From a virus: a DNA stretch of 64,000 bases. Under the pieces are notes generated by a model. It had not been told where the DNA came from. It saw nothing but the letters and a program-made list of their open reading frames with translations, and ran no database searches. Within the stretch, counting starts at the first letter, position 1; every line of letters starts with the position of its first letter. The position numbers and the translations under genes were made by a program. The stretch spans positions 1 through 64,000 of the IMG/VR virus record IMGVR_UViG_3300036792_000218. One strand, 5' to 3'. Of the stretch, positions 3,850 through 16,612 are shown in pieces.

Positions 3850-4356
3850 ATGCCGCGACGCCGGTCCTCCGCGACCATGGAACGCGACGCCAAGGCCTAC
3901 GACCTGTTCCGCCGCGGCCTCAGCTACCGGCAGATCGGCACCGAACTCGGCGTCAGCCACCAGGCCGCATTCGAAGCGGTCCGCCGCGCCGCGAAAGACA
4001 ACGCCGCCAACCCGCTCGAACAAGCCGAGGCACGCCAGGCCGCACTCGACCGGCTGCAGGACTACCGGCGGCACGTTCTCCGGGTCCTCACCGGAAAGCA
4101 CTACGTCGTGTCCCAGGGCGGCCACATCGTGCTCGGCCCGGACAACAAGCCGCTCATCGACACCGACCCGGTACTCAGGGCCGTCGACCGGCTGGTCAAG
4201 ATCGACCAGGAAGACAGCAGGCTCCGCGACCTGTACCCGGCGGCCAAGGCCCGCGTCGAGGTCATCACCGAGGACGCGGTAGACGCCGAACTGGCCACGC
4301 TGGCGAGGCAGGTAGCCGAGAACGATGCCCGCGCCGCTGATACTGGCACCGGCTGA
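3850..4356 (+). CDS. terminase small subunit (N-terminal HTH)
   Basis: HTH (GLSYRQIGTELGVSHQAA), helical body, position overlapping the large terminase. Confidence 0.8.
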   Translation: MPRRRSSATMERDAKAYDLFRRGLSYRQIGTELGVSHQAAFEAVRRAAKDNAANPLEQAEARQAALDRLQDYRRHVLRVLTGKHYVVSQGGHIVLGPDNKPLIDTDPVLRAVDRLVKIDQEDSRLRDLYPAAKARVEVITEDAVDAELATLARQVAENDARAADTGTG

Positions 4357-5899
4357 GAAACTGCAGCGGCTCGCCGAGCTGCGCGAGCGCCTGCGGCTGC
4401 AGGAAGCCGAAAAGCTCCGCAAGACCGACCCGTTCGCGAAACTCGGATTCGCCCCGAACCCCGGCCCGCAGACCCGGTTCCTGTCACTGCCCGACGAGAA
4501 CATCGACGTCCTGTTCGGCGGGGCCGTCGGCGGCAGCAAGTCGACGTCGCTGCTCATGTACGCGATCCGCGCGTGCACCAGGTACCCAGGACTTCAGGCG
4601 TTCTGGTTCCGCCGTACCTTCCCCGAGCTTGAGCACTCCGTGGTCCGCCTCCTGGGCCGCTACGGGTTCGCCAGGGCGCTCGGCTGCCGGTGGCGGGCCG
4701 ACAAGCACGAGCTCCGGTTCCCCAACGGGTCGACGCTGACGTTCGCCCACGCGAAGAACGTCAAAGAGGCCACCGCGTTCCTGTCCGCCGAGATCAACCT
4801 GCTGCTGATCGACGAGCGGACCACGCTGCCGCCCGACGTCGTCGACCTCCTGTACACCCGCATCCGCACCGGTGTACCCGGTGTGCCCGTGCTCGGCTGC
4901 CGCAGCGCCACCAACCCCGGCGACGTCGGCCACTCACGGGTCCTGACCGACTACATCGACGCGACCGGCCACGGTGAGCGTGAGATCACCGACGACAACA
5001 ACCGCCGCCGCATCTTCATCCAGTCGAGGATCGGGGACACGCCCCAGCTCGGCGCCGACTACCTGAAGAACCTCGCGGGCCTGCCGGAAAAGCTCCGTAA
5101 GGCCTACCTGGAGGGCGACTGGACCGTGTTCGCCGGGCAGGTGTTCGACGAGTGGCGGCACGCCCGGCACGTCGTCAAGCCGTTCACGCTCCCCGAGTCG
5201 TGGAAACGGTACTCGGGCACCGACTGGGGCTTCGCCGCCCCCTGGTGCACCCTGTGGCTCGCGGTCGACGAGGACGGCCGCGTCTACGTGTACCGGGAGC
5301 TGTACGCGGCGCAGGTCGGCGAGACGCAGCAGGCGCAGCGGATCGTCGAAGCGGAGGCCGGCGAGCAGGTCGCCGTCCGGTACGCGGACGACGCCATGTG
5401 GGCCACCCGCGGCGAGCTCAAGAGCGTCGCCGACGTCTACGCGGAAAACGGCTGCCACCTGACCAAGGCGGGGAAGGGCCCTGACTCGCGGATCGCCCGC
5501 GTGCAGCGGATGCACACCTACCTCGGTGAGGCGCCCGCCTGCCCGTCGCACCGGGCGCAGGGGTGGGAGACGTGCCCGAAAGTCCACGTGTTCCCCGTCT
5601 GCGCGAACCTGATCCGGACCCTGCCGACGCTCCCGCACCCGACGACGGGCAACCCGGAAGACGTCGACACGAACGCCGAAGATCACGCGTACGACGCGCT
5701 CACCTATGCCCTGGTGAACCTCGGCACCGGCCCGGTGTTCATCCTTCCCGACCTGCCCGCCGCGCAGCTGACCGAAGGCGTCGAGGCGCTGCAGCAGGTG
5801 GGCGCGTTCGCCCGCCGGCCCGACCCGAACGCACCCGAGCGCGACCCGGACGACGACGAGGCCCCGACGGGCATGACGCAACGCGCCCCATGGGCCTGA
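4325..5899 (+). CDS. terminase large subunit
   Basis: Walker A GGAVGGSKST, Walker B LLLIDE, ATNPG coupling motif, nuclease motifs GTDWG and EDHAYDA. Confidence 0.95.
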   Translation: MPAPLILAPAEKLQRLAELRERLRLQEAEKLRKTDPFAKLGFAPNPGPQTRFLSLPDENIDVLFGGAVGGSKSTSLLMYAIRACTRYPGLQAFWFRRTFPELEHSVVRLLGRYGFARALGCRWRADKHELRFPNGSTLTFAHAKNVKEATAFLSAEINLLLIDERTTLPPDVVDLLYTRIRTGVPGVPVLGCRSATNPGDVGHSRVLTDYIDATGHGEREITDDNNRRRIFIQSRIGDTPQLGADYLKNLAGLPEKLRKAYLEGDWTVFAGQVFDEWRHARHVVKPFTLPESWKRYSGTDWGFAAPWCTLWLAVDEDGRVYVYRELYAAQVGETQQAQRIVEAEAGEQVAVRYADDAMWATRGELKSVADVYAENGCHLTKAGKGPDSRIARVQRMHTYLGEAPACPSHRAQGWETCPKVHVFPVCANLIRTLPTLPHPTTGNPEDVDTNAEDHAYDALTYALVNLGTGPVFILPDLPAAQLTEGVEALQQVGAFARRPDPNAPERDPDDDEAPTGMTQRAPWA

Positions 5900-5919: not shown

Positions 5920-7845
5920 ATGCCCCTCGCCGACCCGCGCACCTGGTTCCGCCGTCAGGTCACGGGCGACCTGGAGGAAGCCGCGCCGAGCGCCCGCGCG
6001 CTGCCCGCCAGCGCCGTCAAGCGCGCGGGCTACGAGTCGGGCATCCCGCAGGGCGGCATCGACGAGAACAGCGCAGGGGTAGGCGCGTCGACCCAGACTG
6101 ACCGCCGGTCAGCGCTGACCGAACTGTACGAGGCGTACATTGCCTGCCCGTGGGCGTGGGCGTGCGTCAACGCGATCGCCCGCACCATCACCGCCGGCGG
6201 CCTGGTCAGCGACTGGGACAGCGACAACGGCGAAGGACAGGAACAGCCCAGCAAGCCGCCCCAGGTCCTCGCGCTCGAGGCGCTGATCGCCTACACCAAC
6301 CCGCGGCAGAACATCCGCCAGCTCCTCCGCTCGTTCATCGTCGACCTGCTGGTGTTCGGCGACGCGTTCTTGGAGATCTGCTGGTGGGGCAACCAGCCCG
6401 TCGCGCTCTACAACCTGGACAGCGCGACCACGACGCCGATCGCCGACGAGCACGGCGTGGTGTCCGGGTACGTGCAGGTGACCGACTACGGCCAGAGGGC
6501 CAAGTTCGACGAGCGCGACGTCATCCACGTGTCGCTCGACTCGCCCCGCTCCGGGATCTTCGGGATTCCCCCGATGCAGGCCGCCCTGCTGCCGATCACC
6601 GTGTGGCTGCACGCCGCGGCGACCGGCAAGGAAATGATGCGCAAGGGGTTGCCGCCGGAGATCCACGCGGACTTCCCCGCCGGCACCAGCGACAACGAGA
6701 CGAAGCGCTGGCGCGACCGCTACATGATCACGAACATCGGGCCGCGGAACATCGGCGCCCCGCGGATCACCAAGGGCGGCGCGAAGCTCAACGAGCTGCA
6801 AACCGGCAAGACGACCGACGTCCTCGCGACGAAGGACCAGGCGCGCGACGAGATCCTGTCGTGCTTCGGCGTCCCCCCGTCCAAGGCGACGGTCATCGAG
6901 TCGGGCAACCTCGGAGGCGGCACCGGCGACGACCAGCACCGCACCTACGAGGTAGACACCTGCGGGCCGATCGCCGAACTCGTCCTGGAGGCGCTGAACT
7001 TCGCGGTCACCAAGAAGGGGTTCGGGATCACCGACTGGCGCATGAAGTTCCGCGAGGTCGACTACCGGTCGTCCACGATCATCGAGAACATCCGCGACCA
7101 GCGGCTCCGGAACGGCGCGTGGACGCTGAACAAGTACCGGGCGGAGATCGGGGAGCCCCCGGTCGAGGGCGGCGACGACGCGGTACTCGTCGACCGTCAG
7201 AACCTCGTGCTGTGGGCCGACATGAGCGCCATGTCGAAGGCCGTCGTCGCGAGCAAGGGCGCCCCGGCCGTCGCGGCGGGCGAGGGCACGCCGAACGGTG
7301 AGCCGATGACCGGCGCACCGCAGGACGAGCCGCAGGACGGCCAGGAGCCGCCCGCCGAGAACGTGCCCGTCCTCGTCCTGGCCAGGTACCAGGAGCGGCT
7401 ACGCGAAGCACTCGCCGCGCTGCCCGTCACCGAATCCGACGGCGCCGGCGCGGAGGTGTACGCCCAGCTCGCCCCGGCGTTCCCGCCCTCGGCTATCGCA
7501 TGGGTCAAGAAAGTCACCTGGTCAGGCCCGAAGACCGTGCCGCTCGACCAGGTCGATACCGGCGACCGCGACGACTGGGACGCCTCGCACGAGCCGGGCG
7601 AGGTCAAGCGGCTGCGGAAGAAACTCCGCCGCAAGCTCAAGCGCGGCGAGCAGCCGAAACCGCTGATCCTCGTGAAGGCCCCCGGCTCCGGTAAGTACCT
7701 GATCGCCGACGGCCACCATCACTACCTCGCCGCGGAGGCCGAGGAGCTGACCAGCCTTCCCGCGTACACCGGCAAGGTGAGCGCGAAAGACGGGCCATGG
7801 CGGACGTTCGCCACACAGGAGAAGCGTGACCGTTCCGCGGCCTGA
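5920..7845 (+). CDS. portal protein with C-terminal ParB/Srx-like domain
   Basis: Portal motifs (DLLVFGDAFLEI, DVIH, FGVPP, WTLNKYRAEIG); C-terminal PLILV...YLIADGHHHYLAA. Confidence 0.9.
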   Translation: MPLADPRTWFRRQVTGDLEEAAPSARALPASAVKRAGYESGIPQGGIDENSAGVGASTQTDRRSALTELYEAYIACPWAWACVNAIARTITAGGLVSDWDSDNGEGQEQPSKPPQVLALEALIAYTNPRQNIRQLLRSFIVDLLVFGDAFLEICWWGNQPVALYNLDSATTTPIADEHGVVSGYVQVTDYGQRAKFDERDVIHVSLDSPRSGIFGIPPMQAALLPITVWLHAAATGKEMMRKGLPPEIHADFPAGTSDNETKRWRDRYMITNIGPRNIGAPRITKGGAKLNELQTGKTTDVLATKDQARDEILSCFGVPPSKATVIESGNLGGGTGDDQHRTYEVDTCGPIAELVLEALNFAVTKKGFGITDWRMKFREVDYRSSTIIENIRDQRLRNGAWTLNKYRAEIGEPPVEGGDDAVLVDRQNLVLWADMSAMSKAVVASKGAPAVAAGEGTPNGEPMTGAPQDEPQDGQEPPAENVPVLVLARYQERLREALAALPVTESDGAGAEVYAQLAPAFPPSAIAWVKKVTWSGPKTVPLDQVDTGDRDDWDASHEPGEVKRLRKKLRRKLKRGEQPKPLILVKAPGSGKYLIADGHHHYLAAEAEELTSLPAYTGKVSAKDGPWRTFATQEKRDRSAA

Positions 7846-8038
7846 CGCGGCCCGGCTGCTCGCCGACGTCGCCAGCGCGCTCAACGCGTGCGAGGCCGCG
7901 GCCATCACGGTCAAGCTCAAGCACGGCGCGGTCATCACCCGCAACGGGTACGTGCTGCCCGTCGGCGACGCGCAGTGGGGCGCGCGGACACTGGCCTACT
8001 CACCGTTCGGCGCACCGGAGGGAGACGACGGTGACTGA
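7826..8038 (+). CDS. hypothetical protein
   Basis: GTG with AGGAG RBS overlapping the portal end. Confidence 0.6.
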   Translation: MTVPRPDAARLLADVASALNACEAAAITVKLKHGAVITRNGYVLPVGDAQWGARTLAYSPFGAPEGDDGD

Positions 8039-8162
8039 GCCGCCGCCCGAGCAGCCCTACGAGCTACCGGGCACCAGCCCGGCATGGGAACCCGGCACGC
8101 AGCCCGATCACCCGCTGAGGGCCGTGGACGCCGCGGCCCTGATCCCGAAGCAGGTCGGCTGA
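8031..8162 (+). CDS. small Pro-rich hypothetical protein (43 aa)
   Basis: GTG with GGAGGGAG RBS; TGATG coupling to the next gene; below the ORF-track cutoff. Confidence 0.45.
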   Translation: MTEPPPEQPYELPGTSPAWEPGTQPDHPLRAVDAAALIPKQVG

Positions 8163-8296
8163 TGCCCGCCGGGTGGTTCTTCGGCTGGTACCCGGCCGGG
8201 TACCGCCCCGAGCGGCCCGCCCCTTGCCACGGCAAGCGCCGCGGCGTCACCAAGTCACCCAAGCGCGCCAAGCGCCGCAACCGGAGGAAAGCCTAG
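8162..8296 (+). CDS. small basic protein (44 aa)
   Basis: Coupled ATG; Arg/Lys-rich C-terminus KRRGVTKSPKRAKRRNRRKA. Confidence 0.45.
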   Translation: MPAGWFFGWYPAGYRPERPAPCHGKRRGVTKSPKRAKRRNRRKA

Positions 8297-8298
8297 CC

Positions 8299-9018
8299 AT
8301 GCAGCCCACTGTCTGCCGCACCGTCCTGTACAGGCTCCACGCGGGCGACGCCGAGCAGATCAACCGCCTCCGCGACGACTTCGCCGCGTTCAACCGGTCG
8401 CACCGGCACGCGGACCATGAGCCGGGCAGCTTCCCCGGCCGGTCGGGGCACATCGGCCACTTCGGCAACCAGGTCAGCGAAGGCGACTCCTACCCGGCGG
8501 TCGTGGTCCGCACGTTCGGCGGCAGCACGGTCAACCTCAAGGTCCTGCTCGACGGGAACGACGACTATTGGGCGACGAGCCGGGCCGAGGGCGACGAGCC
8601 GGGCCAGTGGTCCTGGCCCCTGCTGGTGACGGGCCAGCCGCTTACGGGGACGCTCACGCGCACCGCGCCGCGGGTCACCGACCTCGTGCACTACGTCAGC
8701 CACGGCAGCCCGGTCAGGGCCGACGGGTCGCAGGCGTACAAGTCGGTATGCCGGGCGGCGATCGTGACCGGCGGCCCGCACCTGGTCTCGGGGACGTTCG
8801 ACACCGGCGGCGGCGAGGCGCTGAGCTTGTGCGTGCTCAACCCCGAGGGCATGTTCTTCAACCAGCACGTCCTGTTCGACGCGGCCGTGGCCACTCCCGG
8901 TGACCCCGAGTGCCTGAGCCGCGTCAACCACGGCAACCCGTTCCGCTACTGCGAGTGCGGGTGGATCGAGGCGGCGTTCAAGGGCGGCACCTGGCACCAG
9001 CCCGGCCCCGGCTGCTGA
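8299..9018 (+). CDS. hypothetical phage protein with two tandem related domains
   Basis: ATG with GGAGG RBS; two units of P.V...V.Y...AA/PA(I/V)V...(G)TW/QW.(W)P. Confidence 0.7.
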   Translation: MQPTVCRTVLYRLHAGDAEQINRLRDDFAAFNRSHRHADHEPGSFPGRSGHIGHFGNQVSEGDSYPAVVVRTFGGSTVNLKVLLDGNDDYWATSRAEGDEPGQWSWPLLVTGQPLTGTLTRTAPRVTDLVHYVSHGSPVRADGSQAYKSVCRAAIVTGGPHLVSGTFDTGGGEALSLCVLNPEGMFFNQHVLFDAAVATPGDPECLSRVNHGNPFRYCECGWIEAAFKGGTWHQPGPGC

Positions 9019-9025
9019 TACGCCG

Positions 9026-9322
9026 ATGTGCACGCGTCCCGGTGGCCGCGACGGCGACCCCGAGTGCCTTGACGACGAAGGCGGCCCGCTCGTCGGCGAA
9101 GACGACCCGTGCCCGGACGAGGCGGACCACGACGTGTGCCCGGACGAGGCGGACCACGACGTGTGCCCGGACGAGGCGGACCACGACGTGTGCCCGGACG
9201 AGGCGGACCACGACGTGTGCCCGGACGAGGCGGACGACGACGTGTGCCCGCACTGCCAGCGCCGCCAGCACGCCCGCTGTACCGACCCGCGGTGCACCTG
9301 CTGCCTGGGGAATGAGGACTAA
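9026..9322 (+). CDS. Cys/His/Asp-rich repeat protein (CPDEADHDV x5)
   Basis: Fills the gap between two plus-strand genes; repeat is in frame; weak RBS. Confidence 0.55.
   Translation: MCTRPGGRDGDPECLDDEGGPLVGEDDPCPDEADHDVCPDEADHDVCPDEADHDVCPDEADHDVCPDEADDDVCPHCQRRQHARCTDPRCTCCLGNED
9109..9250. repeat. 27-bp tandem repeat GTGCCCGGACGAGGCGGACCACGACGT, 5 copies plus 7 bp
   Basis: Units start at 9109, 9136, 9163, 9190, 9217; one substitution in the last unit. Confidence 0.97.
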
Positions 9323-9324
9323 CG

Positions 9325-9681
9325 ATGCGCACGGTAGCGGTCGACTTTGACGGCGTGATCCACGCGTACGGCCGGGGCTGGCAGGACGGCACGATCTACG
9401 ACGAGCCGGTTCCCGGCGCGCTCGACGCTCTCCGGACACTCATGGCGGACCACGCCGTGTTCGTGCACACCAGCCGGAACGTTGACCAGGTCGCGATGTG
9501 GCTGTCCGGCCATGGGATCGACTGCTCGCGCCTGGTCGACGATGACCGCGAATTCTGGAATGAGCTTGGCCGGGTGCTCGTGACGAACCGCAAGTACCCG
9601 GCGGTCGCCTACATCGACGACCGGGCCATCCGGTTCACCGACTGGGCGCAGGCGTTCGAAGACCTGAAGGAGTTCACCTGA
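9325..9681 (+). CDS. HAD-superfamily phosphatase (minimal)
   Basis: Motif I VAVDFDGVI, motif II HTSR, K in NRKYP, motif IV YIDDRA. Confidence 0.85.
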   Translation: MRTVAVDFDGVIHAYGRGWQDGTIYDEPVPGALDALRTLMADHAVFVHTSRNVDQVAMWLSGHGIDCSRLVDDDREFWNELGRVLVTNRKYPAVAYIDDRAIRFTDWAQAFEDLKEFT

Positions 9682-9989
9682 TGGCCACCGTTGACGTCAC
9701 CGCCCTGGCCGACGCCGTCCGCGAAACCGGGATCGGGCTCAAGCCGGGCGACGTGCTCGCGGTACGGCTGCCCATGGAAATCAACCAGGCAGAGCTTCGC
9801 CATGCCCGGACCTACGCTGACGCCGTCGGCAGGGACGCGGGGATCACGGTCGCGCTGATTCCTGGCGAGGAGTTCGCGCACACCACGGTCAACGTCAACG
9901 TGACCGTGAACGGGACAGACCCGGAGACGCTGGCCGGCGAGGTACGCCGCCAGGTGCTTGAGCGCGCCCCGGCGGGCCCGCTCGCTTAG
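9681..9989 (+). CDS. hypothetical protein
   Basis: TGATG coupling and AAGGAG RBS. Confidence 0.65.
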   Translation: MATVDVTALADAVRETGIGLKPGDVLAVRLPMEINQAELRHARTYADAVGRDAGITVALIPGEEFAHTTVNVNVTVNGTDPETLAGEVRRQVLERAPAGPLA

Positions 9990-10107
9990 GTCAGGCTGCC
10001 GGGGCCCGGTGCCAGCCCCAAGCCCCCGTGCGGGGCGGTCAGCGCGCATGGCTCGGAATCCCGGCGCGCGCCCGCCCGGCAGCCTGCAAGAACGTACGAT
10101 CGGAGGC

Positions 10108-10278
10108 ATGTTCAGCAACGACGCGTTCGGCAAGCTCCTGCGCGGCATGCTCGGGCCACCTGACCCGCAGCCGGGACCGCCGTACGCGCACACGCTGACG
10201 CACCCGGAGACCGAGGAAGAGATGGCGGCCGAACCGGCGTTGCCGTCTTTCACCGTGGAGCGTGGCCGGCGGCGCTAG
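10108..10278 (+). CDS. hypothetical protein
   Basis: ATG with GGAGG RBS inside ORF 9958..10278. Confidence 0.4.
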   Translation: MFSNDAFGKLLRGMLGPPDPQPGPPYAHTLTHPETEEEMAAEPALPSFTVERGRRR

Positions 10279-10520
10279 AACGGCACCCGGTCAGGCGGCG
10301 GCTCCCCGTACTGCTTGCGTGCCGCGTCCGCTGTCATGCCGATGGCCGCGCCGATCGCGTCCCACCCGATACGGAGTTGGCGCGCGTACCAAACGCGCTC
10401 ACGTTCCCGCTCGTCGAGCGCGGCGCGTTCGACTGGGATCTCACGGAGCCCGGCCATGATCGCCGCCTGCTCGCGGGCGAGGACCGCGGCGTCATCGTCG
10501 GCGAAGTCGTCACCCGTCAT
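10275..10520 (-). CDS. small HTH protein, counter-oriented insert
   Basis: ARQLRIGWDAIGAAIGMTADAARKQY HTH pattern; ATG coupled to 10517..10771. Confidence 0.6.
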   Translation of the reverse strand: MTGDDFADDDAAVLAREQAAIMAGLREIPVERAALDERERERVWYARQLRIGWDAIGAAIGMTADAARKQYGEPPPDRVPF

Positions 10521-10771
10521 GGAGTCCCGTTTAGCTTCCGGTTGTACGCGGCAACGAACTTGTGAGCTGACCGGACGTTCCCCTGAACGGTCCACGAGTC
10601 AAGCACCCGGCCGTCCGGTGCCCTGAGCGAGACCAGGCTGGTCGACCCGTGACCGCCCCGGCCGGGAGACTGGATTTCGGCCTGCGCGCCAGCAGTGAGC
10701 CCGCTATCGATCCGGGCCGTGCTGATCTTCGCCGGGGCATGCCGGTACGGTGCCGTAAGTTTCTTCAACAT
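10517..10771 (-). CDS. hypothetical protein, counter-oriented insert
   Basis: ATG with AAGGGGG RBS. Confidence 0.5.
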   Translation of the reverse strand: MLKKLTAPYRHAPAKISTARIDSGLTAGAQAEIQSPGRGGHGSTSLVSLRAPDGRVLDSWTVQGNVRSAHKFVAAYNRKLNGTP

Positions 10772-10916
10772 GGTGATCAGTCCCCCTTGACTGGTCTCCG
10801 GTTCCGCTGGCCAGGGCGAGGATGCCCCGTTTGAGCGCTTCGACTTCCTCGCGGGTCACGCCCGACTCGAAGTTCACGAGGTCAAGCTAGCGCCAAACCA
10901 GCGGGGAGGTTGCCCC

Positions 10917-12392
10917 GTGGCCGATGCGCAGCCCGACTACTCCGGTTCCTGCATGATCGCCCTTTACCCGCCGCCCGAGGTCGCCGGGGCGCTCGCGGTA
11001 CCGGACGGCCTCAGTGCCGAGGGCATGCACCTGACGATTGCCTACACCGGCGACGCCGCCGACGTCGACCCCGAAGCGCTCAACGCAGTCGCGCGGGCAC
11101 TCGCCGGCCGGCCGCCGGTCGCCGCGGTGATCTCCGGTCACGCGCGCTTCACCGGCGGCGAGCAGGACGTGATCGTCGCCCTCGTCGACTCACCGGACCT
11201 GGAAACGCTGCGGGCCGACGCACGGGAAGCGCTGGGTGCGGCGGGAATCGCGATCCCGTCCGAGCACGGGTTCACGCCGCACATGTCGATCCGGTACTGC
11301 GCGGCTGACGACGTCGACCCCGTTGGCCGGCTGGCCTCGTTCCCCGTGGCGTTCGGCGCGGTCTCCGCCGTCCACGGCAAGGCCCGCACCGACTACCTGT
11401 TCGACGACCCGCTGCCCGGGCAAGCCAGGGAAGCCTATGCCGCGGGGTGGGCGCTGTCCGGCGGCCCCATGACCGACCGGGTTAAGGCCGGGTGCACGGC
11501 AGCGATCGCGCGCGCCCTGGAGAACCGTCACGACCCCGCTGTCCTCGAGGTAACGCTAGACCTCGGCAAGCTGCAGGGGACGTGGGCGGAGGTGTACCGG
11601 CGACGCGAGGAACTGACCGCCGGCCACGTCGACCTGATCGCCGCGGCCTGGCGGAAGCTCGTCAAGCGCCTCGACGTGCACGACCTCGTGAAGCAGTGGA
11701 AGCGCCACGCGTCGCTGCCCGCCCCGATGGAGTCAGCCGACCAGCAATGGCGGAAAGCCGCTGTCGTCGCGGTCCTCGCCTGGCTCCGCTCCGTCCTCGC
11801 CGACCCCGACTACCGGGAGCTCGCGCAGGCGGTCACCGCCGCGCTGACCGCCGGGCAGGCCGAGGGCAGGACCGCGGCGCTCGCCGTGGCCGCCGACCAG
11901 GCCGGGGCCGTCGGGTTCGACTGGGACAAGGCCTACGACGCCATGACCCGCGACGTCGCCGTGCACCTGCCCGATGCGGCCGAACCGTGGGTGCAGCGGA
12001 TCATCGCCGGCGCGGCGGCCGACGGCGGCAAGCTGCTCGCGGACCTGGCCGACGAGGGCGAGAGCGATACGGCGATCGCCAAGGCGGTCCTCGACGTGAT
12101 CGCGGGCACCACCCCGAAGGCGCTGACGCTGATCGCTGACTACGCGATGGGCGCGGCGATGGCACGCGGCTCACTCGACCTGTACGCGTCCGAGGGCCTG
12201 ACGCTGGTCGCCTGGATGACGGCCGGGGACGGCCGCGTCTGCCCTGCCTGCCAGGACAACGAGGACAACGGCCCCTACGCGCCCGAAGCGTTCCCGTCGT
12301 GCCCCGATCACTACCGCTGCCGCTGCTGCCCCGCACCCGCCCAGCCGCTCCCCGTGTCCGCTTACGCGGCGTTCCTCGTCCCGGCCGCATAG
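10917..12392 (+). CDS. 2H phosphoesterase (Acb1-like) fused to MuF-like minor head protein
   Basis: HxT/S pair HLT (H38) and HMS (H122); C-terminal WMTAGDGRVCPAC...P..PDHYRCRC MuF motif; GGGGAGG RBS. Confidence 0.85.
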   Translation: MADAQPDYSGSCMIALYPPPEVAGALAVPDGLSAEGMHLTIAYTGDAADVDPEALNAVARALAGRPPVAAVISGHARFTGGEQDVIVALVDSPDLETLRADAREALGAAGIAIPSEHGFTPHMSIRYCAADDVDPVGRLASFPVAFGAVSAVHGKARTDYLFDDPLPGQAREAYAAGWALSGGPMTDRVKAGCTAAIARALENRHDPAVLEVTLDLGKLQGTWAEVYRRREELTAGHVDLIAAAWRKLVKRLDVHDLVKQWKRHASLPAPMESADQQWRKAAVVAVLAWLRSVLADPDYRELAQAVTAALTAGQAEGRTAALAVAADQAGAVGFDWDKAYDAMTRDVAVHLPDAAEPWVQRIIAGAAADGGKLLADLADEGESDTAIAKAVLDVIAGTTPKALTLIADYAMGAAMARGSLDLYASEGLTLVAWMTAGDGRVCPACQDNEDNGPYAPEAFPSCPDHYRCRCCPAPAQPLPVSAYAAFLVPAA

Positions 12393-12402
12393 GAGGCACC
12401 CC

Positions 12403-12804
12403 ATGGCGTTCGACGACTCCGGACGGCTCATCTGGTCCCTGGCCGGCTCCGGCCTCGGTACCACGCTCACGACGTCGGGGAACTCAGGCGGGTACACGCC
12501 TGGCACCCCGAACGCCCGCAGTGCCGTCGACCTCCGCAGGGTCGATGACCTGTGGCTGTCGGCGGTCGCGGGAGCCGGGTCCGGTACGGCGCTGACCGTG
12601 CAGGTCGACGGCTACGACGACCAGGGGAACCTGTTCCCGCAGCTGCTCAAGGTCACCGTCGCCGCCGCGCCCGGGCAGGCCGTGGCGTTCGGCGGCCGGC
12701 ACAGCGGCGGCAGCTCGTACCTCGTGCTCCCCGACTGGGGGCGCGTCTCCTGGGCGCTCACCGGCACCATGACCGGCTGCGCGATCTCCCTGTACGCCCG
12801 CTGA
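12403..12804 (+). CDS. putative virion structural protein (beta-rich)
   Basis: AGGAGG RBS, Gly/Thr/Ser-rich, within the head module. Confidence 0.65.
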   Translation: MAFDDSGRLIWSLAGSGLGTTLTTSGNSGGYTPGTPNARSAVDLRRVDDLWLSAVAGAGSGTALTVQVDGYDDQGNLFPQLLKVTVAAAPGQAVAFGGRHSGGSSYLVLPDWGRVSWALTGTMTGCAISLYAR

Positions 12805-12851
12805 CCACCGTCCCCCCGCCGTACCACCAAGTCCCGTGAAAGGGGATCAGC

Positions 12852-13172
12852 ATGGCTAAGAACGGCATCGTGACCGACTACGACGACGCCGGCTACCCGC
12901 AGGTAGCCGCGTCCACCGCGAACATCACCATCGGCACCACGCAGACGGTGAAGGGCGCGCCCGGCCGGCTGGTCAAGGTCATCGTGACCACGGTCACCGC
13001 CACCGCCGTCACGACCATCTACGACTCCGCAGCCGCCGCGTCCGGCACGCCGCTGCTCGTCATCCCCATAGCCGCCCCTGTCGGCACCGTCTACACCATC
13101 GACCTGCCCGCAGTGAACGGCATCACCGTCGCGGGCGCCGGCACCGGGGCGATCACCATCGGCTACAGCTGA
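12852..13172 (+). CDS. putative head decoration/structural protein
   Basis: AAGGGG RBS, Thr/Ala/Val-rich beta-type sequence. Confidence 0.65.
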   Translation: MAKNGIVTDYDDAGYPQVAASTANITIGTTQTVKGAPGRLVKVIVTTVTATAVTTIYDSAAAASGTPLLVIPIAAPVGTVYTIDLPAVNGITVAGAGTGAITIGYS

Positions 13173-13232
13173 CAGCCGCTGACCGCATGACACCGGCCGC
13201 ACGAGCACGAGCACGGGAAAGGAGGCGGCGGC

Positions 13233-15128
13233 GTGGCCAAGACCATCGCGACGATCACCGGCACCGCGCTCAAGCCGGGCGTGTCCCGTAACGGCCGCTG
13301 GTACAAGCCGGAGCACGTCACCGGCGCCGTCCAGAGCGCCCAGGAACGCATCGCGGCCGGCGAGAAGCCGATGGTGATGCTCACGTTCCACGGCGCCGAG
13401 GACGACAGCCGGGAGATAGCGGCGACGCTCACCGGCATGACGCTGGCCGAGGACGGCAGCGCCGAGTTCTCGGCGGGCCTGACCGACACCCCGGCCGGGT
13501 GGGACATCGCCCGGCTGACCGACACCAGCGACGGCCAGCCGGCGCACCTGCGGACCGTCAGCATCCGCGGCGCGTGGACCGGGCGCGTCCGCAAGGAACG
13601 CGGGCCCGGCGGCCAGGTCGTCGAGGTCGGGGAGGGCCTGCAGCTCGACGGCGTTGACTTCACGAAGTCACCGGGTGTCGACGGGGCGCAGATCAAGACG
13701 TTCGCGTGGGCCAAGGACGGCACCACGGAGACCACGGAGCGCGTGCTCATCACTGAGAGCGTGCAGGAGGCGCATGTGACGATCAGCGAGGAAACCGCGC
13801 CTGCCGCGCCAGCAGTGCCGGACGGGGTACGGGAATTGCTCCGCACCGTGTTCGGTGAGCACGTCGCGGAGGCGGCCACCCCGGCAGTGTCGAAGCGCGG
13901 CAGCGGCCTGTCCGACGGCTCAGGCCGCGCGTTCGCGGACCCCGGCTACCAGGCGGACAAGAAGCAGCGGTACGACCTGACCACGAAAGCCAAGGCCAAA
14001 AGCGCGTGGTCGTTCGTCAACCAGGCCGACAACGCGAAGCTGTACAGCGGCCCGCAGCTCAAGCAGATCAAGAAGCGGATCGTCGCGGCCCTGAGGAAGT
14101 TCGGGGTCACCGTCGCCGCTGAGGGCTGGTCGGTAGACCCGCCGCTGCTGCTCACCGAGGCGCTGGTCGAGTATTACGGCGGTGACCCGTCCTGCGCGGG
14201 CTCCTACAGCCTGTCCGCGACCAACGGGCCGACCACGGTCAGCATCTACTCCTACGGCTGCGACCCCGCCGACCTTCAGGTGATCCTCGCGAAGGCGTGC
14301 GAGGGCGCTGGGCTGGCCCTGAAGTCGCTCGACCCCGACATGGACGCCGACATCGACCTGCCCGGCGACGGGGACGAGAGCGCCCCGGACGAGGCCGACG
14401 CCATGGCCGAGCGGTTCGCCGCGGTGCTCCGCGGTGAGTCCGCCGAAACCCTGGACGCCCTGGTCTCCGAGGCGAGAGCGTCCGCAGCCGTCACCGAGAC
14501 GGCCACCGACCCGGCACCCGACCCGGCTGCCGCAAACCCAGAAGGAACGGAGGGCCCCGCTGTGAGCGAGACCACCCAGGAGGCGGCAGGCACGGCCACG
14601 GCTGCGCCCGCCACCCTCTCCATCCCGCAGGACATCATGGACGAGGCGATGCGGAAGGCGGCGAAGAAGGCCGCCAGGCGCGCGCTCGCCGGAACCGCGA
14701 CCACCGCCCCGGCCGAGTCCGCCCCGGCCGCGCCCGCGACCGCGGCGGTGACCGAAACCGACGAGCAGCGGATCACCCGGATCGTCGAGGCGCAGGTCGC
14801 CGCGAAGCTCGCCGAGTCGGCCGCCGCCGAGACCGAAGAGGCGCGGATCGCCCGGCTCGTCGAGCAGGGGGTGGCGGCCGCGAAGCAGCAGCTCACCGAG
14901 CAGGGCGGCGGCCCCGGCCGCAAGGGCCTCAACCCCGGCGGGACGTCGGTCAACGAGGCCGCCGGCGGCGCCGGCACCACGGCGGGCCCCGAGCTGAACG
15001 CCCACGGCATGCCGCGGGACTGGCCGGACAAGCCGCTGCACCAGTTCAGCAGCGACGAGCTTGACCAGTACGTCGGCCCGGCCGTGACCCGCCACTACCT
15101 CGGGGACCGCGCCAACCTGATCGGCTGA
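13233..15128 (+). CDS. capsid maturation protease-scaffold fusion with inserted DUF6582-like domain
   Basis: GVSRNGRWY, TFH, VSIRG, VDFTKSPG protease motifs; FADPGY...RY...AWSFVNQ...IKKRIVAALRKFGV insert (13932-14108); Ala/Glu-rich scaffold; precedes the capsid gene. Confidence 0.85.
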   Translation: MAKTIATITGTALKPGVSRNGRWYKPEHVTGAVQSAQERIAAGEKPMVMLTFHGAEDDSREIAATLTGMTLAEDGSAEFSAGLTDTPAGWDIARLTDTSDGQPAHLRTVSIRGAWTGRVRKERGPGGQVVEVGEGLQLDGVDFTKSPGVDGAQIKTFAWAKDGTTETTERVLITESVQEAHVTISEETAPAAPAVPDGVRELLRTVFGEHVAEAATPAVSKRGSGLSDGSGRAFADPGYQADKKQRYDLTTKAKAKSAWSFVNQADNAKLYSGPQLKQIKKRIVAALRKFGVTVAAEGWSVDPPLLLTEALVEYYGGDPSCAGSYSLSATNGPTTVSIYSYGCDPADLQVILAKACEGAGLALKSLDPDMDADIDLPGDGDESAPDEADAMAERFAAVLRGESAETLDALVSEARASAAVTETATDPAPDPAAANPEGTEGPAVSETTQEAAGTATAAPATLSIPQDIMDEAMRKAAKKAARRALAGTATTAPAESAPAAPATAAVTETDEQRITRIVEAQVAAKLAESAAAETEEARIARLVEQGVAAAKQQLTEQGGGPGRKGLNPGGTSVNEAAGGAGTTAGPELNAHGMPRDWPDKPLHQFSSDELDQYVGPAVTRHYLGDRANLIG

Positions 15129-15235
15129 CCCCGCCTTACCCCCGCTTCACCTTCCCCTTTTTGGCCGCCAGCCGTCCCGGCTGGTGCTACCCAGCGCGGT
15201 AACGGCCGTCATCTCGAAACAGAGAGGAGACGGCC

Positions 15236-16612
15236 ATGCCGTCAGAGCTCCGCGAGGCGCTGAACGCCGCCGGCGCATCAGCCCTAGTCCCGAAGATCAT
15301 CTCCCCGATCCTGGTCGAGTACCAGCGTCGTTACGCGCCGCTGTGCCGCTCGATCCCCATGGAACCGTGGGCATCGGACATCTACTACTTCAACCAGCGG
15401 ACGCAGAACCCCGGCGGCGGCGCGGTCCCCGACGGCGGCGCCCGCCCGGTCACCAACTCGACCTACGTGCAGAACCAGTTCCAGATGAAGCACGTGGAGA
15501 GCGTCGGCGCGGTCACCGGCTACAGCCAGGAAGTGACCCGGCAGCTGATCGGCGACCTGCGGCAGACGGAAATCCAGGGGTCCATCAAGGGCTACTACTG
15601 GGACGTCGAGACGTTCATCGGCTGGGGCAACGCCGCGGCCACCCTGAACCAGGCTCAGCCGCAGTTCGACGGCCTCGACACGCTGATCAACACGTTCAGC
15701 GGCGGCACCCAGAACGCCATCGACAAGGCCGGCAACTCGTTCACCCTCGCGTTCGCGGACGAGCTGATCGACATGGTGGAGTCCAACGCCGCCATGCCGG
15801 TACAGGACGAGTCGTGGATGTTCGTCACGAGCTCGACGGGCAACAGCCGGTTCAGCCAGCTGCTGCAGAACCAGCAGCGGTTCATCGACAAAGTCGAGAT
15901 CGCTCCGGGCCTCATCGTGCCGTCGTACAGGAACATCCCGATCGTGAAGTCGTCGTTCCTGTCGATGCGAGGCTACAACGTCGGCGCGGTCACCTCCGCG
16001 ACCGCCGCGAACGCCGCGGCGACGCTGAACGGCACCTACAAGTACACGGTGTCCGCGATCATCGCCCGCCAGGGTGAGATCGCGCCGAGCGCCGAGGTGA
16101 GCCAGGCGGTCACCACGGGCAACAACGTGGTCCTGTCCTTCACCCCGCCGTCCGGTCAGGACGGGCTCGCGCCGCAGCTTTACAAGGTGTGGCGCACCGC
16201 CGCGAACGGCGCGTCGGGGTCGGAGACGTTCCTCGGCTACGTCGATGCGACGGTTGGCCTGCTCGCCGACGGCGTGACGCAGGTCCTCACCAACCAGATC
16301 GTCGACACCGGCGCGGCGCTGATCCCGATGCAGTCGAGCGGCAGCATCGTCCCGGGCATCCTGCCCGCGACGTACATCGGGACGAACACGGCGATGCTTC
16401 CCCCGTCCGCCGGCCTGGAGAACTTCTTCCTGATCAGCCGGGACCGGGGCAACCTGTGCCGCCCGTACGTGCGCGAGGCGAAGCCGCTCGACGTGTACCC
16501 GACCACGGCGGCCCCCGACACGCTGCCCTACGCAGTCATCGGGGACACCACGCTCGCGGTCCGGGCGCCCAAGTTCCTCGGGCGCCTGTACCGCACCGCG
16601 ATCGCGGTCTAG
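15236..16612 (+). CDS. major capsid protein with Ig/FN3-like insertion
   Basis: Position after scaffold; GAGAGGAG RBS; LVPKII, QFDGL motifs; insert TYKYTVSA...E..PSAEVS...VVLSFTPP...YKVWRT. Confidence 0.88.
   Translation: MPSELREALNAAGASALVPKIISPILVEYQRRYAPLCRSIPMEPWASDIYYFNQRTQNPGGGAVPDGGARPVTNSTYVQNQFQMKHVESVGAVTGYSQEVTRQLIGDLRQTEIQGSIKGYYWDVETFIGWGNAAATLNQAQPQFDGLDTLINTFSGGTQNAIDKAGNSFTLAFADELIDMVESNAAMPVQDESWMFVTSSTGNSRFSQLLQNQQRFIDKVEIAPGLIVPSYRNIPIVKSSFLSMRGYNVGAVTSATAANAAATLNGTYKYTVSAIIARQGEIAPSAEVSQAVTTGNNVVLSFTPPSGQDGLAPQLYKVWRTAANGASGSETFLGYVDATVGLLADGVTQVLTNQIVDTGAALIPMQSSGSIVPGILPATYIGTNTAMLPPSAGLENFFLISRDRGNLCRPYVREAKPLDVYPTTAAPDTLPYAVIGDTTLAVRAPKFLGRLYRTAIAV

Follow-up and report, generated by a model that had tools for sequence, protein, structure and literature searches.

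In P2 gpO and in the nested C/Nu3 of lambda, an N-terminal protease and a C-terminal scaffold are made from one gene and self-cleavage removes the scaffold; in P2 the portal and capsid proteins are trimmed as well. The prohead protease of T4, gp21, cuts after Glu in L/I-x-E; it takes off propeptides that are 7 to 65 residues long, breaks the scaffold into pieces and also processes the packaged Alt at both ends, and the internal proteins of T4 are basic and stay with the DNA when the scaffold peptides leave (PMC9026906). The SPN3US protease gp245 cuts at A-x-E with a preference for Ser at P1', the portal being included among its substrates (PMC10052503). In a survey of polyvalent proteins (Iyer 2017; PMC5512222), 2H, PBECR and InPase domains were found fused to MuF or portal, a ParB family was named as a hub domain of such proteins, and delivery with the DNA was proposed, the 2H domain then degrading nucleotide immune signals. 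Here we describe the head genes in the first 64 kb (positions 1 to 64,000, the window) of the IMG/VR virus record IMGVR_UViG_3300036792_000218, three of which carry an extra domain: ParB/Srx on the portal, a 2H phosphoesterase on the MuF protein and DUF6582 inside the protease-scaffold. The record has 92,369 bp with direct terminal repeats and is rated complete, the G+C content of the window is about 70%, and the sources of relatives are named as Streptomyces, Streptacidiphilus and Streptosporangiaceae. For MuF relatives these sources include Streptomyces sp. NPDC059340, NPDC007148 and NPDC004008 and Streptacidiphilus griseoplanus. The phage is thus complete, uncultured and from Streptomyces-like actinobacteria, and the window holds its module for head assembly.

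An original prediction made from the letters of this stretch had read the three head proteins as carriers of cargo domains that the head protease releases. The three extra domains were confirmed by profiles, Pfam matches and model folds, and every motif site that it listed was found where it had been placed. In the scheme that we favour, and to which as a whole we give an even chance, a protease of gp21 fold that is fused to DUF6582 and scaffold would cut after Glu, at about [V/I/L/A]-[T/x]-E followed by [A/S/T]. In itself and the scaffold it would cut at conserved sites, some ten to twelve in number, that lie in disordered linkers; the scaffold pieces, which are acidic, would leave the prohead, and the sole basic piece, DUF6582, would probably stay with the DNA as an internal protein. 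Sites of the same type lie close to two N-termini, at about 20 residues in the portal and 7 in the capsid protein, and at the portal/ParB and 2H/MuF joints, and optional enzyme domains would be grafted onto termini that face the capsid interior. The portal graft would be a basic ParB/Srx domain of nucleoside triphosphate (NTP)-binding or nuclease type, in up to 12 copies per virion, and MuF, of which there are few copies, would carry an acidic 2H phosphoesterase of LigT type. ParB would probably be freed between V-T-E and S, and 2H may be freed between A-R-E and A or stay on MuF; cut or not, both enzymes would already be present in the virion and could be at work in the host before phage gene expression. 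Within this scheme we infer the Glu specificity, every cleavage, the retention in the capsid, the ejection and the enzyme targets.

The protease-scaffold protein and its DUF6582 module

The N-terminal domain of the protease-scaffold protein was modelled by AlphaFold2 (AF2) with a predicted local distance difference test (pLDDT) score above 90. Its best solved match is T4 gp21 (5jbl), with a VIA-align Z of 12.9, a root mean square deviation of 2.7 Å over 132 residues and Foldseek TM values of 0.62–0.64, and the herpesvirus proteases (assemblins) come next with VIA-align Z of 6.6–10.4. The residues H53 and S110, the latter in the VSIRG motif that had first suggested a likeness to gp21, lie 57 residues apart and are invariant in 42 homologs of 47–69% identity, the set on which conservation in this protein was judged; that suggestion is borne out by the fold match. 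At the level of sequence, no Pfam family was found for residues 1–196 even at E 10, there was no NCBIfam match for the protease, a PDB profile search with the protease-scaffold gave low-complexity matches alone, and the only match to a protease was phrog_207, 'head maturation protease', at E 1e-4. Judged from its model, the prohead protease is gp21-like by fold.

In the linker that follows the protease domain, E175, E179, A180 and E186 are invariant and E166 is nearly so; the motif ITES173 is present in 41 of the 42 homologs and VxEA177 contains an invariant Glu-Ala pair. The motif LTEA307 on the far side of DUF6582 is kept in 31/42, with E309 in at least 80%. Other sites kept by column are VTET420, [VM]xET444, VTE[TS]506 and VxE575, and in the pair ET533-534 the Glu is conserved in at least 90% of homologs and the Thr is invariant. 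The window protein itself has VTET420, VSET444, PAE495, VTET506, AAET531 and VNEA573 in its scaffold linkers. The conserved linker residues are mostly Glu with a hydrophobic residue at P3 (E166, E175, E179, E186, E309, E402, E440, E446, E495, E508, E533 and E575), and the conserved sites fall in segments that AF2 predicts to be disordered (163–193, 419–465, 487–508 and 559–585) or at helix starts. Neither IVEA517 nor LAES526 is conserved, and the latter is withdrawn from the sites first put forward. Self-cleavage of the protease-scaffold at these conserved Glu residues is, in our view, probable.

DUF6582 was recognised by Pfam (PF20223) at residues 233–295 with 35–37.5 bits against a cut-off of 27.3. 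When the protein is divided at the conserved sites, the fragment 180–309 that holds DUF6582 is basic, with an isoelectric point (pI) of 9.4, and is so in 79% of the 42 homologs; the remaining segments are acidic in almost every homolog. The charge of this fragment is shared by the ParB tail of the portal, which is likewise basic, and both are flanked by candidate sites. By our analysis, such a charge fits DUF6582 and ParB as DNA-associated internal proteins. The domain directly after DUF6582 (14163–14450, residues 310–400) has a median charge of about -18 and a nearly invariant D-P-D-M-D-x-D-I-D, and it gave no match to a known family or fold. There was no convincing structural match for either DUF6582 or this acidic middle domain (Z of 4 or less, searched as parts of the 631-residue model alone), and none of DUF6582, the middle domain and the C-terminal domain matched a PHROG. 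At the two sites inspected for an internal start that could yield the scaffold separately, none was evident: the conserved M370 lacks a Shine-Dalgarno sequence, and the next Met is preceded by a weak one.

DUF6582 is found at the same place in nearly all of 120 listed homologs of about 600–700 residues. A search of 1.8 billion representative proteins returned 1014 clusters with the module, and in most of them it lies at about residues 180–300, behind a protease-sized N-terminal domain; its other settings are the N-terminus of scaffold-like proteins (330–530 residues) and stand-alone proteins of 93–165 residues. Some capsid proteins of about 850 residues carry it at their N-terminus, and it occurs twice in a protein of 920 residues, between an HK97-type Peptidase_S78 and an HK97-type capsid domain (P0408, P0431 and P0493). 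A protein with 12 'DUF6582' stretches (P0383) proved to be a false match, an Ig-repeat surface protein. Since DUF6582 recurs in head-interior polyproteins, it is not an insert peculiar to the window phage, and since it stands beside S78 protease and capsid domains, it would travel with head-interior regions whatever the protease family. As far as these sequences tell, DUF6582 is a constant basic module of head-interior polyproteins across two protease families, gp21-like and S78. No mention of DUF6582 was found in the literature searched; if the proposed role is true, DUF6582 would be a widespread, undescribed family of phage internal proteins.

Optional enzyme domains on the portal and MuF proteins

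The ParB/Srx domain forms the tail of the portal, from about residue 507 to 641. When 10 homologous tails were combined into a profile, it matched 1vk1, SerK and SbnI, all of the ParB/Srx fold, at E 4e-4 over the DGHHR loop; the portal tail matches SerK in NCBIfam at E 1.5e-5; and the AF2 model of the tail (pLDDT 83) has ParB/Srx structures throughout the top of its Foldseek list. The Pfam family ParBc (PF02195) does not match the window portal, for which a DUF1015 match at E 0.12 was the sole weak one, and PF02195 is annotated (precomputed) in two relatives, P0252 and P0281. The loop reads DGHHR in 52/62 motif-bearing relatives and DGHHH in the window copy, which shares the replacement of the canonical Arg by His with the other 10/62. 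Because of this replacement, classical catalysis by the window domain may be relaxed. The tail carries a helix rich in Lys and Arg, and it is basic in 76% of 63 relatives.

The same features could point to a structural role, in which ParB/Srx is a working part of the portal and twelve basic NTP- or DNA-binding domains hold or sense the end of the packaged DNA, in headful sensing, retention or ejection priming, whether cut or uncut. The C-terminus of a portal faces the capsid interior; the domain, with its Lys/Arg-rich helix, is basic; the loss of the DGHHR Arg may have relaxed classical catalysis; and one relative (L034:5992-8331, 779 residues) has two tandem ParB domains. About half of the close relatives lack the domain with a head module that is otherwise the same, on the other hand, so that ParB is dispensable for packaging, and its repeated gain and loss on the portal tree (see below) is what is seen with accessory conflict genes. 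We regard this role as unlikely.

Portal relatives come in short forms of about 500–545 residues and in long forms of about 630–750 residues with ParB. The short portals stop soon past a conserved helix, Y-R-x-R-L-R-E-A-L, for example with ...LPGGVDERAA. The motif LREA at 494–497, which had been taken for a joint site, is part of this helix in short and long portals alike and for that reason is more likely structural. The motif VTES lies directly at the joint, where P-[VIL]-T-E-[AS] is present in 54/60 long (ParB-bearing) portals and in 5/57 short ones. Near the N-terminus, E20 is conserved in at least 90% of 117 portal homologs and has V, I or L at P3. We put the cutting of ParB from the portal at evens. 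The ParB domain looks as if it had been inserted between the V-T-E site and a conserved Ala-Ala end of the portal, and this Ala-Ala C-terminus resembles an ssrA-type degradation tag. Among unusual relatives, L062:6453-8564 is a portal of 703 residues with ParB and a Cys-rich tail, L075:5508-8231 is a portal-MuF fusion of 907 residues in one frame, and the portals P0244, P0248 and P0264 (about 980 residues) are some 340 residues longer, one of them with a LAGLIDADG domain (PF14528); these three long portals probably carry inteins.

The 2H domain of the MuF protein was matched by PF13563 at residues 31–132 (E 3e-14, 53.8 bits against a cut-off of 27) and by TIGR02258 (E 1e-5). Its two HxT/S motifs are HLT and HMS, and at least two such motifs occur within the first 200 residues in 60/67 long MuF relatives. 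The Acb1 model PF23474 gave 17.1 bits against a cut-off of 27, and because of this score we call the domain, from its sequence, a generic LigT-like 2H domain, which may nevertheless degrade signalling nucleotides. Together with its linker it is acidic (pI about 4.5), as it always is among relatives. The MuF module that follows has weak Mu_F/SPP1 gp7 matches at residues 380–470 (PF04233 at E 2e-4, TIGR01641 at E 1.6e-4), and its SPP1 gp7-type Cys/His region and its place in the head module agree with this identity.

MuF proteins also come in two forms, short ones of 325–345 residues and long ones of 480–520 residues with 2H. The short forms start 7–10 residues before a conserved A-R-E-A-[YF]-A-A-G-W, the Glu of which marks the 2H/MuF joint of the long forms. 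This Glu is kept in 80/82 forms with 2H and in 48/68 without, and over 21 phylogenetically independent pairs the contrast agrees with this in 7.9 and opposes it in 0.6 (median p 0.02). Since the Glu is kept preferentially with 2H, it would gain in importance where an upstream domain is there to be released, or else it makes contact with 2H. PMES at MuF residue 270, a site of the original prediction, and the first AREA at residue 102 are not conserved among homologs and look like chance. We doubt rather than expect that 2H is cut from MuF, and would rate it below the release of ParB. Two unusual MuF relatives were noted: L016:7053-9140 is an open reading frame (ORF) of 695 codons in the MuF family with two pieces matching the window MuF about 400 residues apart, and P0166 (701 residues) has a Hint domain (PF13403) and is probably interrupted by an intein.

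The genomic context of relatives was drawn from 80 IMG/VR loci, together with homologs from the protein database. All four combinations of presence and absence of ParB and 2H occur, and trees of the core domains require at least 7 state changes for ParB and at least 29 for 2H. On this evidence the two are dispensable accessory domains that come and go independently. Each fusion has a single extra domain, placed at a conserved x-x-E site. The idea that cargo domains swap at the motifs is upheld in so far as ParB and 2H are optional at conserved sites, and fails for DUF6582, which is constant and not interchangeable.

Weighing release against permanent fusion

Motif counts were compared with the expectation from composition-preserving shuffles. 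The loose motif [LVI]xE[AST] occurs 11 times in the protease-scaffold (2.47 expected, P <0.002), 6 times in the portal (1.81 expected, P 0.004), twice in the capsid protein (0.99 expected, P 0.25) and not at all in MuF (1.33 expected). The terminase, which is not packaged, also has 6 copies (1.38 expected, P 0.004) and is as enriched as the portal, so this motif does not mark head proteins and the predicted enrichment in head over non-structural proteins did not materialise; across non-head proteins the motif stands at about 1.3 to 1.5 times the shuffled expectation. The narrow motif [VIL]TE[AST] occurs 4 times in the protease-scaffold against 0.25 expected (16 times), once in the portal, exactly at the ParB joint, and 6 times in all 56 non-head proteins against 2.3 expected. 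By these counts, [VIL]-T-E-[AST] is specific where the loose motif is not. Of the notion that a motif marks the joints, what survives is the narrow V-T-E-[A/S] at the portal joint and the Glu at the MuF joint; the loose motif does not.

Such counts also bear on the possibility that the whole pattern is a functionless by-product of Ala/Glu/Thr-rich composition and helical periodicity. The background level of the loose motif, its strong excess in terminase and the lack of conservation of PMES, the internal AREA, IVEA517 and LAES526 speak for a by-product, whereas the sites in the linkers are conserved by column over 42 to 120 homologs in segments that are otherwise variable and predicted to be disordered, and the narrow motif exceeds its expectation so far in the protease-scaffold. 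We consider a by-product very improbable.

Two small conserved proteins encoded between MuF and the protease-scaffold, of 133 and 106 residues, contain no Glu at all (P 0.001 and 0.004 at the window's 5% Glu), and their orthologs mostly have 0–2. From composition, this could reflect selection against a Glu-specific protease, or a beta-rich, Gly/Thr-rich make-up, and it is weak support for such a protease because the tail proteins are also Glu-poor. The N-terminus of the capsid protein, M-P-S-E-[LIV]-R-E-A-L, is nearly invariant, and about 55 homologs read [LIV]-R-E-A-L. A peptide L-R-E-A-L-x-A is common to this N-terminus (15248–15262, S-E-L-R-E-A-L-x-A-A-G-A) and the portal helix (7396–7413, R-R-L-R-E-A-L-A-A-L-P), and may mean a shared binding partner or be a coincidence. 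A complex prediction of the protease domain with portal residues 484–530 gave a score of 0.00 and no verdict, and it counts neither for nor against cleavage.

Besides the terminase count, several observations weigh against the proposed release. A Thr or Ser followed by acidic residues can be a helix cap, as some of the T-E-T motifs could be, and the sites at 506 and 531 of the scaffold are not independent because they sit in two copies of one duplicated helix unit. In the portal, [VI]-[TDS]-E before a short tail is kept in many ParB-less forms (...VDERAA, ...VTERAA) and, to judge from the alignment, may belong to a conserved C-terminal element and not to a release site; independent contrasts at this joint run 3.6 against 0 in the expected direction but are underpowered (5 pairs, p 0.125). 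The Ala-Ala C-terminus (...RAA, ...KAA; 7843–7845 in the window) is present in 54/64 portals with a ParB-type motif and in 22/56 without (homologs P0241–P0360), and this points to a role for the very C-terminus before any cut: since Ala-Ala ends both portal forms, the C-terminal element may act in the uncut portal. In MuF, AREA belongs to the conserved first segment of the module, and its Glu is kept in 71% of 2H-less forms; a freed acidic 2H domain would have no obvious means of staying in the capsid, and for this reason 2H may stay on MuF. Finally, a cultured relative was not found in the phage collection searched (INPHARED), which gave no DNA match to the region and no protein match to the protease-scaffold or DUF6582, and in which the nearest portals are 21–23% identical.

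Much of this would be expected if the fusions are permanent, so that the protease processes itself, the scaffold and perhaps the capsid protein alone, ParB stays on the portal crown and 2H on MuF as polyvalent head proteins in the sense of Iyer et al., and the joint residues are structural, as linker, helix cap or domain contact. The published effector fusions to MuF and portal are not known to need release by a prohead protease (PMC5512222), V-x-E and the Ala-Ala end occur in both portal forms, AREA is part of the conserved MuF start in forms with and without 2H, and the terminase is equally enriched in the loose motif. The four-residue consensus at the portal joint is the same as at the linker sites of the protease-scaffold, on the other hand, the MuF Glu is kept more strictly with 2H, also on independent contrasts, and the gp21-type proteases that have been studied cut portals and packaged proteins (PMC10052503, PMC9026906). 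We hold permanent fusion to be a real but minority prospect.

Release by the head protease can be extended into a wider and more speculative model, which we offer tentatively. Uncultured actinobacterial phages that form a large family, with many contigs of about 90–115 kb, may use the portal C-terminus, the MuF N-terminus and the protease-scaffold as interchangeable loading docks, with a gp21-type protease freeing the passengers at V-T-E or A-R-E; ParB/Srx and DUF6582 would be ejected with the DNA, and 2H would destroy immune nucleotides or repair cleaved RNA before phage expression. Should the cuts prove real, the family would follow a loading rule far from T4, namely to graft a domain onto a capsid-interior terminus that already bears a head-protease site. 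DUF6582 would gain its first context of function, portals would be seen to carry enzymes that can be released, the packing of anti-defence enzymes into the virions of Streptomyces phages could be put to the test, and actinophages might be engineered by this rule to deliver cargo. If the cuts are not real, the fusions are ordinary members of the published class of effectors fused to MuF and portal.

The head module and its place among known systems

The genes lie on the + strand in the order large terminase, portal, about 3 kb of small variable genes, 2H-MuF, two small genes, protease-DUF6582-scaffold and major capsid protein (Table 1). The spacing between portal and MuF ranges from about 100 bp to about 5 kb among relatives. 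In the window this gap includes the ORF 9026–9322, in which the tandem repeat (27 bp x 5.5) codes for CPDEADHDV repeats, as well as one gene with matches to two PHROGs of unknown function, another for a small protein that matches phrog_1238, and a minus-strand gene at 10275–10595.

Table 1. Features of the head region, in window coordinates. A slash within a motif marks the candidate cut.
Feature	Position	Strand	Basis and remarks
Large terminase	4325..5899	+	phrog_2, phrog_979 terminase large subunit; non-packaged control for motif enrichment
Portal, 641 aa, long form with C-terminal ParB/Srx	5920..7845	+	Pfam Phage_portal at residues 78-408; phrog_12
LEEA, portal residues 18-21, candidate N-terminal propeptide cleavage site	5971..5982	+	Family consensus G-D-[VI]-T-E-A
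LREA, portal residues 494-497	7399..7410	+	Inside conserved helix Y-R-x-R-L-R-E-A-L, common to short and long portals
VTES, portal residues 503-506, portal core/ParB joint	7426..7437	+	Alignment of homologs
ParB/Srx-fold domain, ~15 kDa, pI 9.45, basic helix	7438..7842	+	Profile, AF2 model, Foldseek
Variable small-gene stretch between portal and MuF	7846..10916	.	ORFs; 27-bp x 5.5 tandem repeat at 9102-9250
2H phosphoesterase and short linker (MuF residues 1-169)	10917..11423	+	PF13563, TIGR02258
AREA, MuF residues 170-173, candidate cleavage site at 2H/MuF joint	11424..11435	+	Within conserved A-R-E-A-[YF]-A-A-G-W
MuF/SPP1 gp7-like minor head protein module	11436..12392	+	PF04233, TIGR01641, both below curated cut-offs
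Two small conserved head-module proteins	12403..12804, 12852..13172	+	133 aa and 106 aa, zero Glu
Protease-DUF6582-scaffold gene, 631 aa	13233..15128	+	Fold match to T4 gp21; PF20223
Prohead serine protease domain, residues 1-162	13233..13718	+	T4 gp21/assemblin fold; H53 at 13389-13391, S110 at 13560-13562
Disordered linker, residues 163-193	13719..13811	+	pLDDT <50; Glu sites TTE166, ITE175/S, VQE179/A, ISE186
DUF6582 module, residues 225-300	13905..14132	+	PF20223; pLDDT 86-93
LTEA, residues 307-310, downstream of DUF6582	14151..14162	+	Consensus [VIL]-T-E-A
Acidic middle domain, then scaffold-like helices with disordered linkers, then folded C-terminal domain (586-631)	14163..15128	+	Alignment, AF2
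Major capsid protein	15236..16612	+	phrog_752
LREA, capsid protein N-terminus M-P-S-E-L-R-E-A	15248..15259	+	Homolog N-termini

Effectors fused to MuF or portal are already on record (Iyer 2017), and so is the processing of head proteins after Glu in T4, phiKZ and SPN3US. What seems new is a conserved site of protease type at the very point where a single domain is grafted onto the C-terminus of the portal and the N-terminus of MuF, the evidence from contrasts at the MuF joint, a gp21-fold protease fused to scaffold in actinophages, and a first context for DUF6582 as a basic module of the head interior. The arrangement of protease and scaffold in one gene recalls P2 gpO and lambda C/Nu3, which differ in that their proteases belong to other families than the gp21-type protease of the window, and we know of no DUF6582-like basic module in either.

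The polyvalent proteins (PMC5512222) resemble the window proteins in having enzyme domains fused to MuF or portal within the head module, which are read as effectors delivered with the DNA. They differ in that zincin-like peptidase domains, and not the prohead protease, were invoked for their processing, and the window ParB is closest, in the profile and fold searches, to SerK/SbnI/Srx-like members. T4 (PMC9026906) offers the closest solved protease fold, and the proposed cut after Glu with a hydrophobic P3 and the proposed dicing of the scaffold at many sites would be alike; the removal of short N-terminal leaders, the keeping of basic proteins with the DNA and the preloading and ejection of enzymes such as Alt are known there and proposed here. 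Its cargo consists of free proteins with a targeting leader of 10 residues (IPI-III, Alt), whereas the window cargo is joined to the C-terminus of the portal and the N-terminus of MuF, and the protease shares one gene with scaffold and DUF6582. The window protease has no detectable sequence similarity to gp21, and its phage has an actinobacterial host and a genome of 92 kb. The phiKZ gp175 and SPN3US gp245 proteases (PMC10052503) are likewise of gp21 type, cut after Glu (A-x-E), cleave themselves and remove propeptides from portal, capsid and ejection proteins, in phages that are far from the window phage in genome size and host. Nearly all of their cuts take N-terminal propeptides, whereas the cut proposed for the window portal would free a folded C-terminal enzyme.

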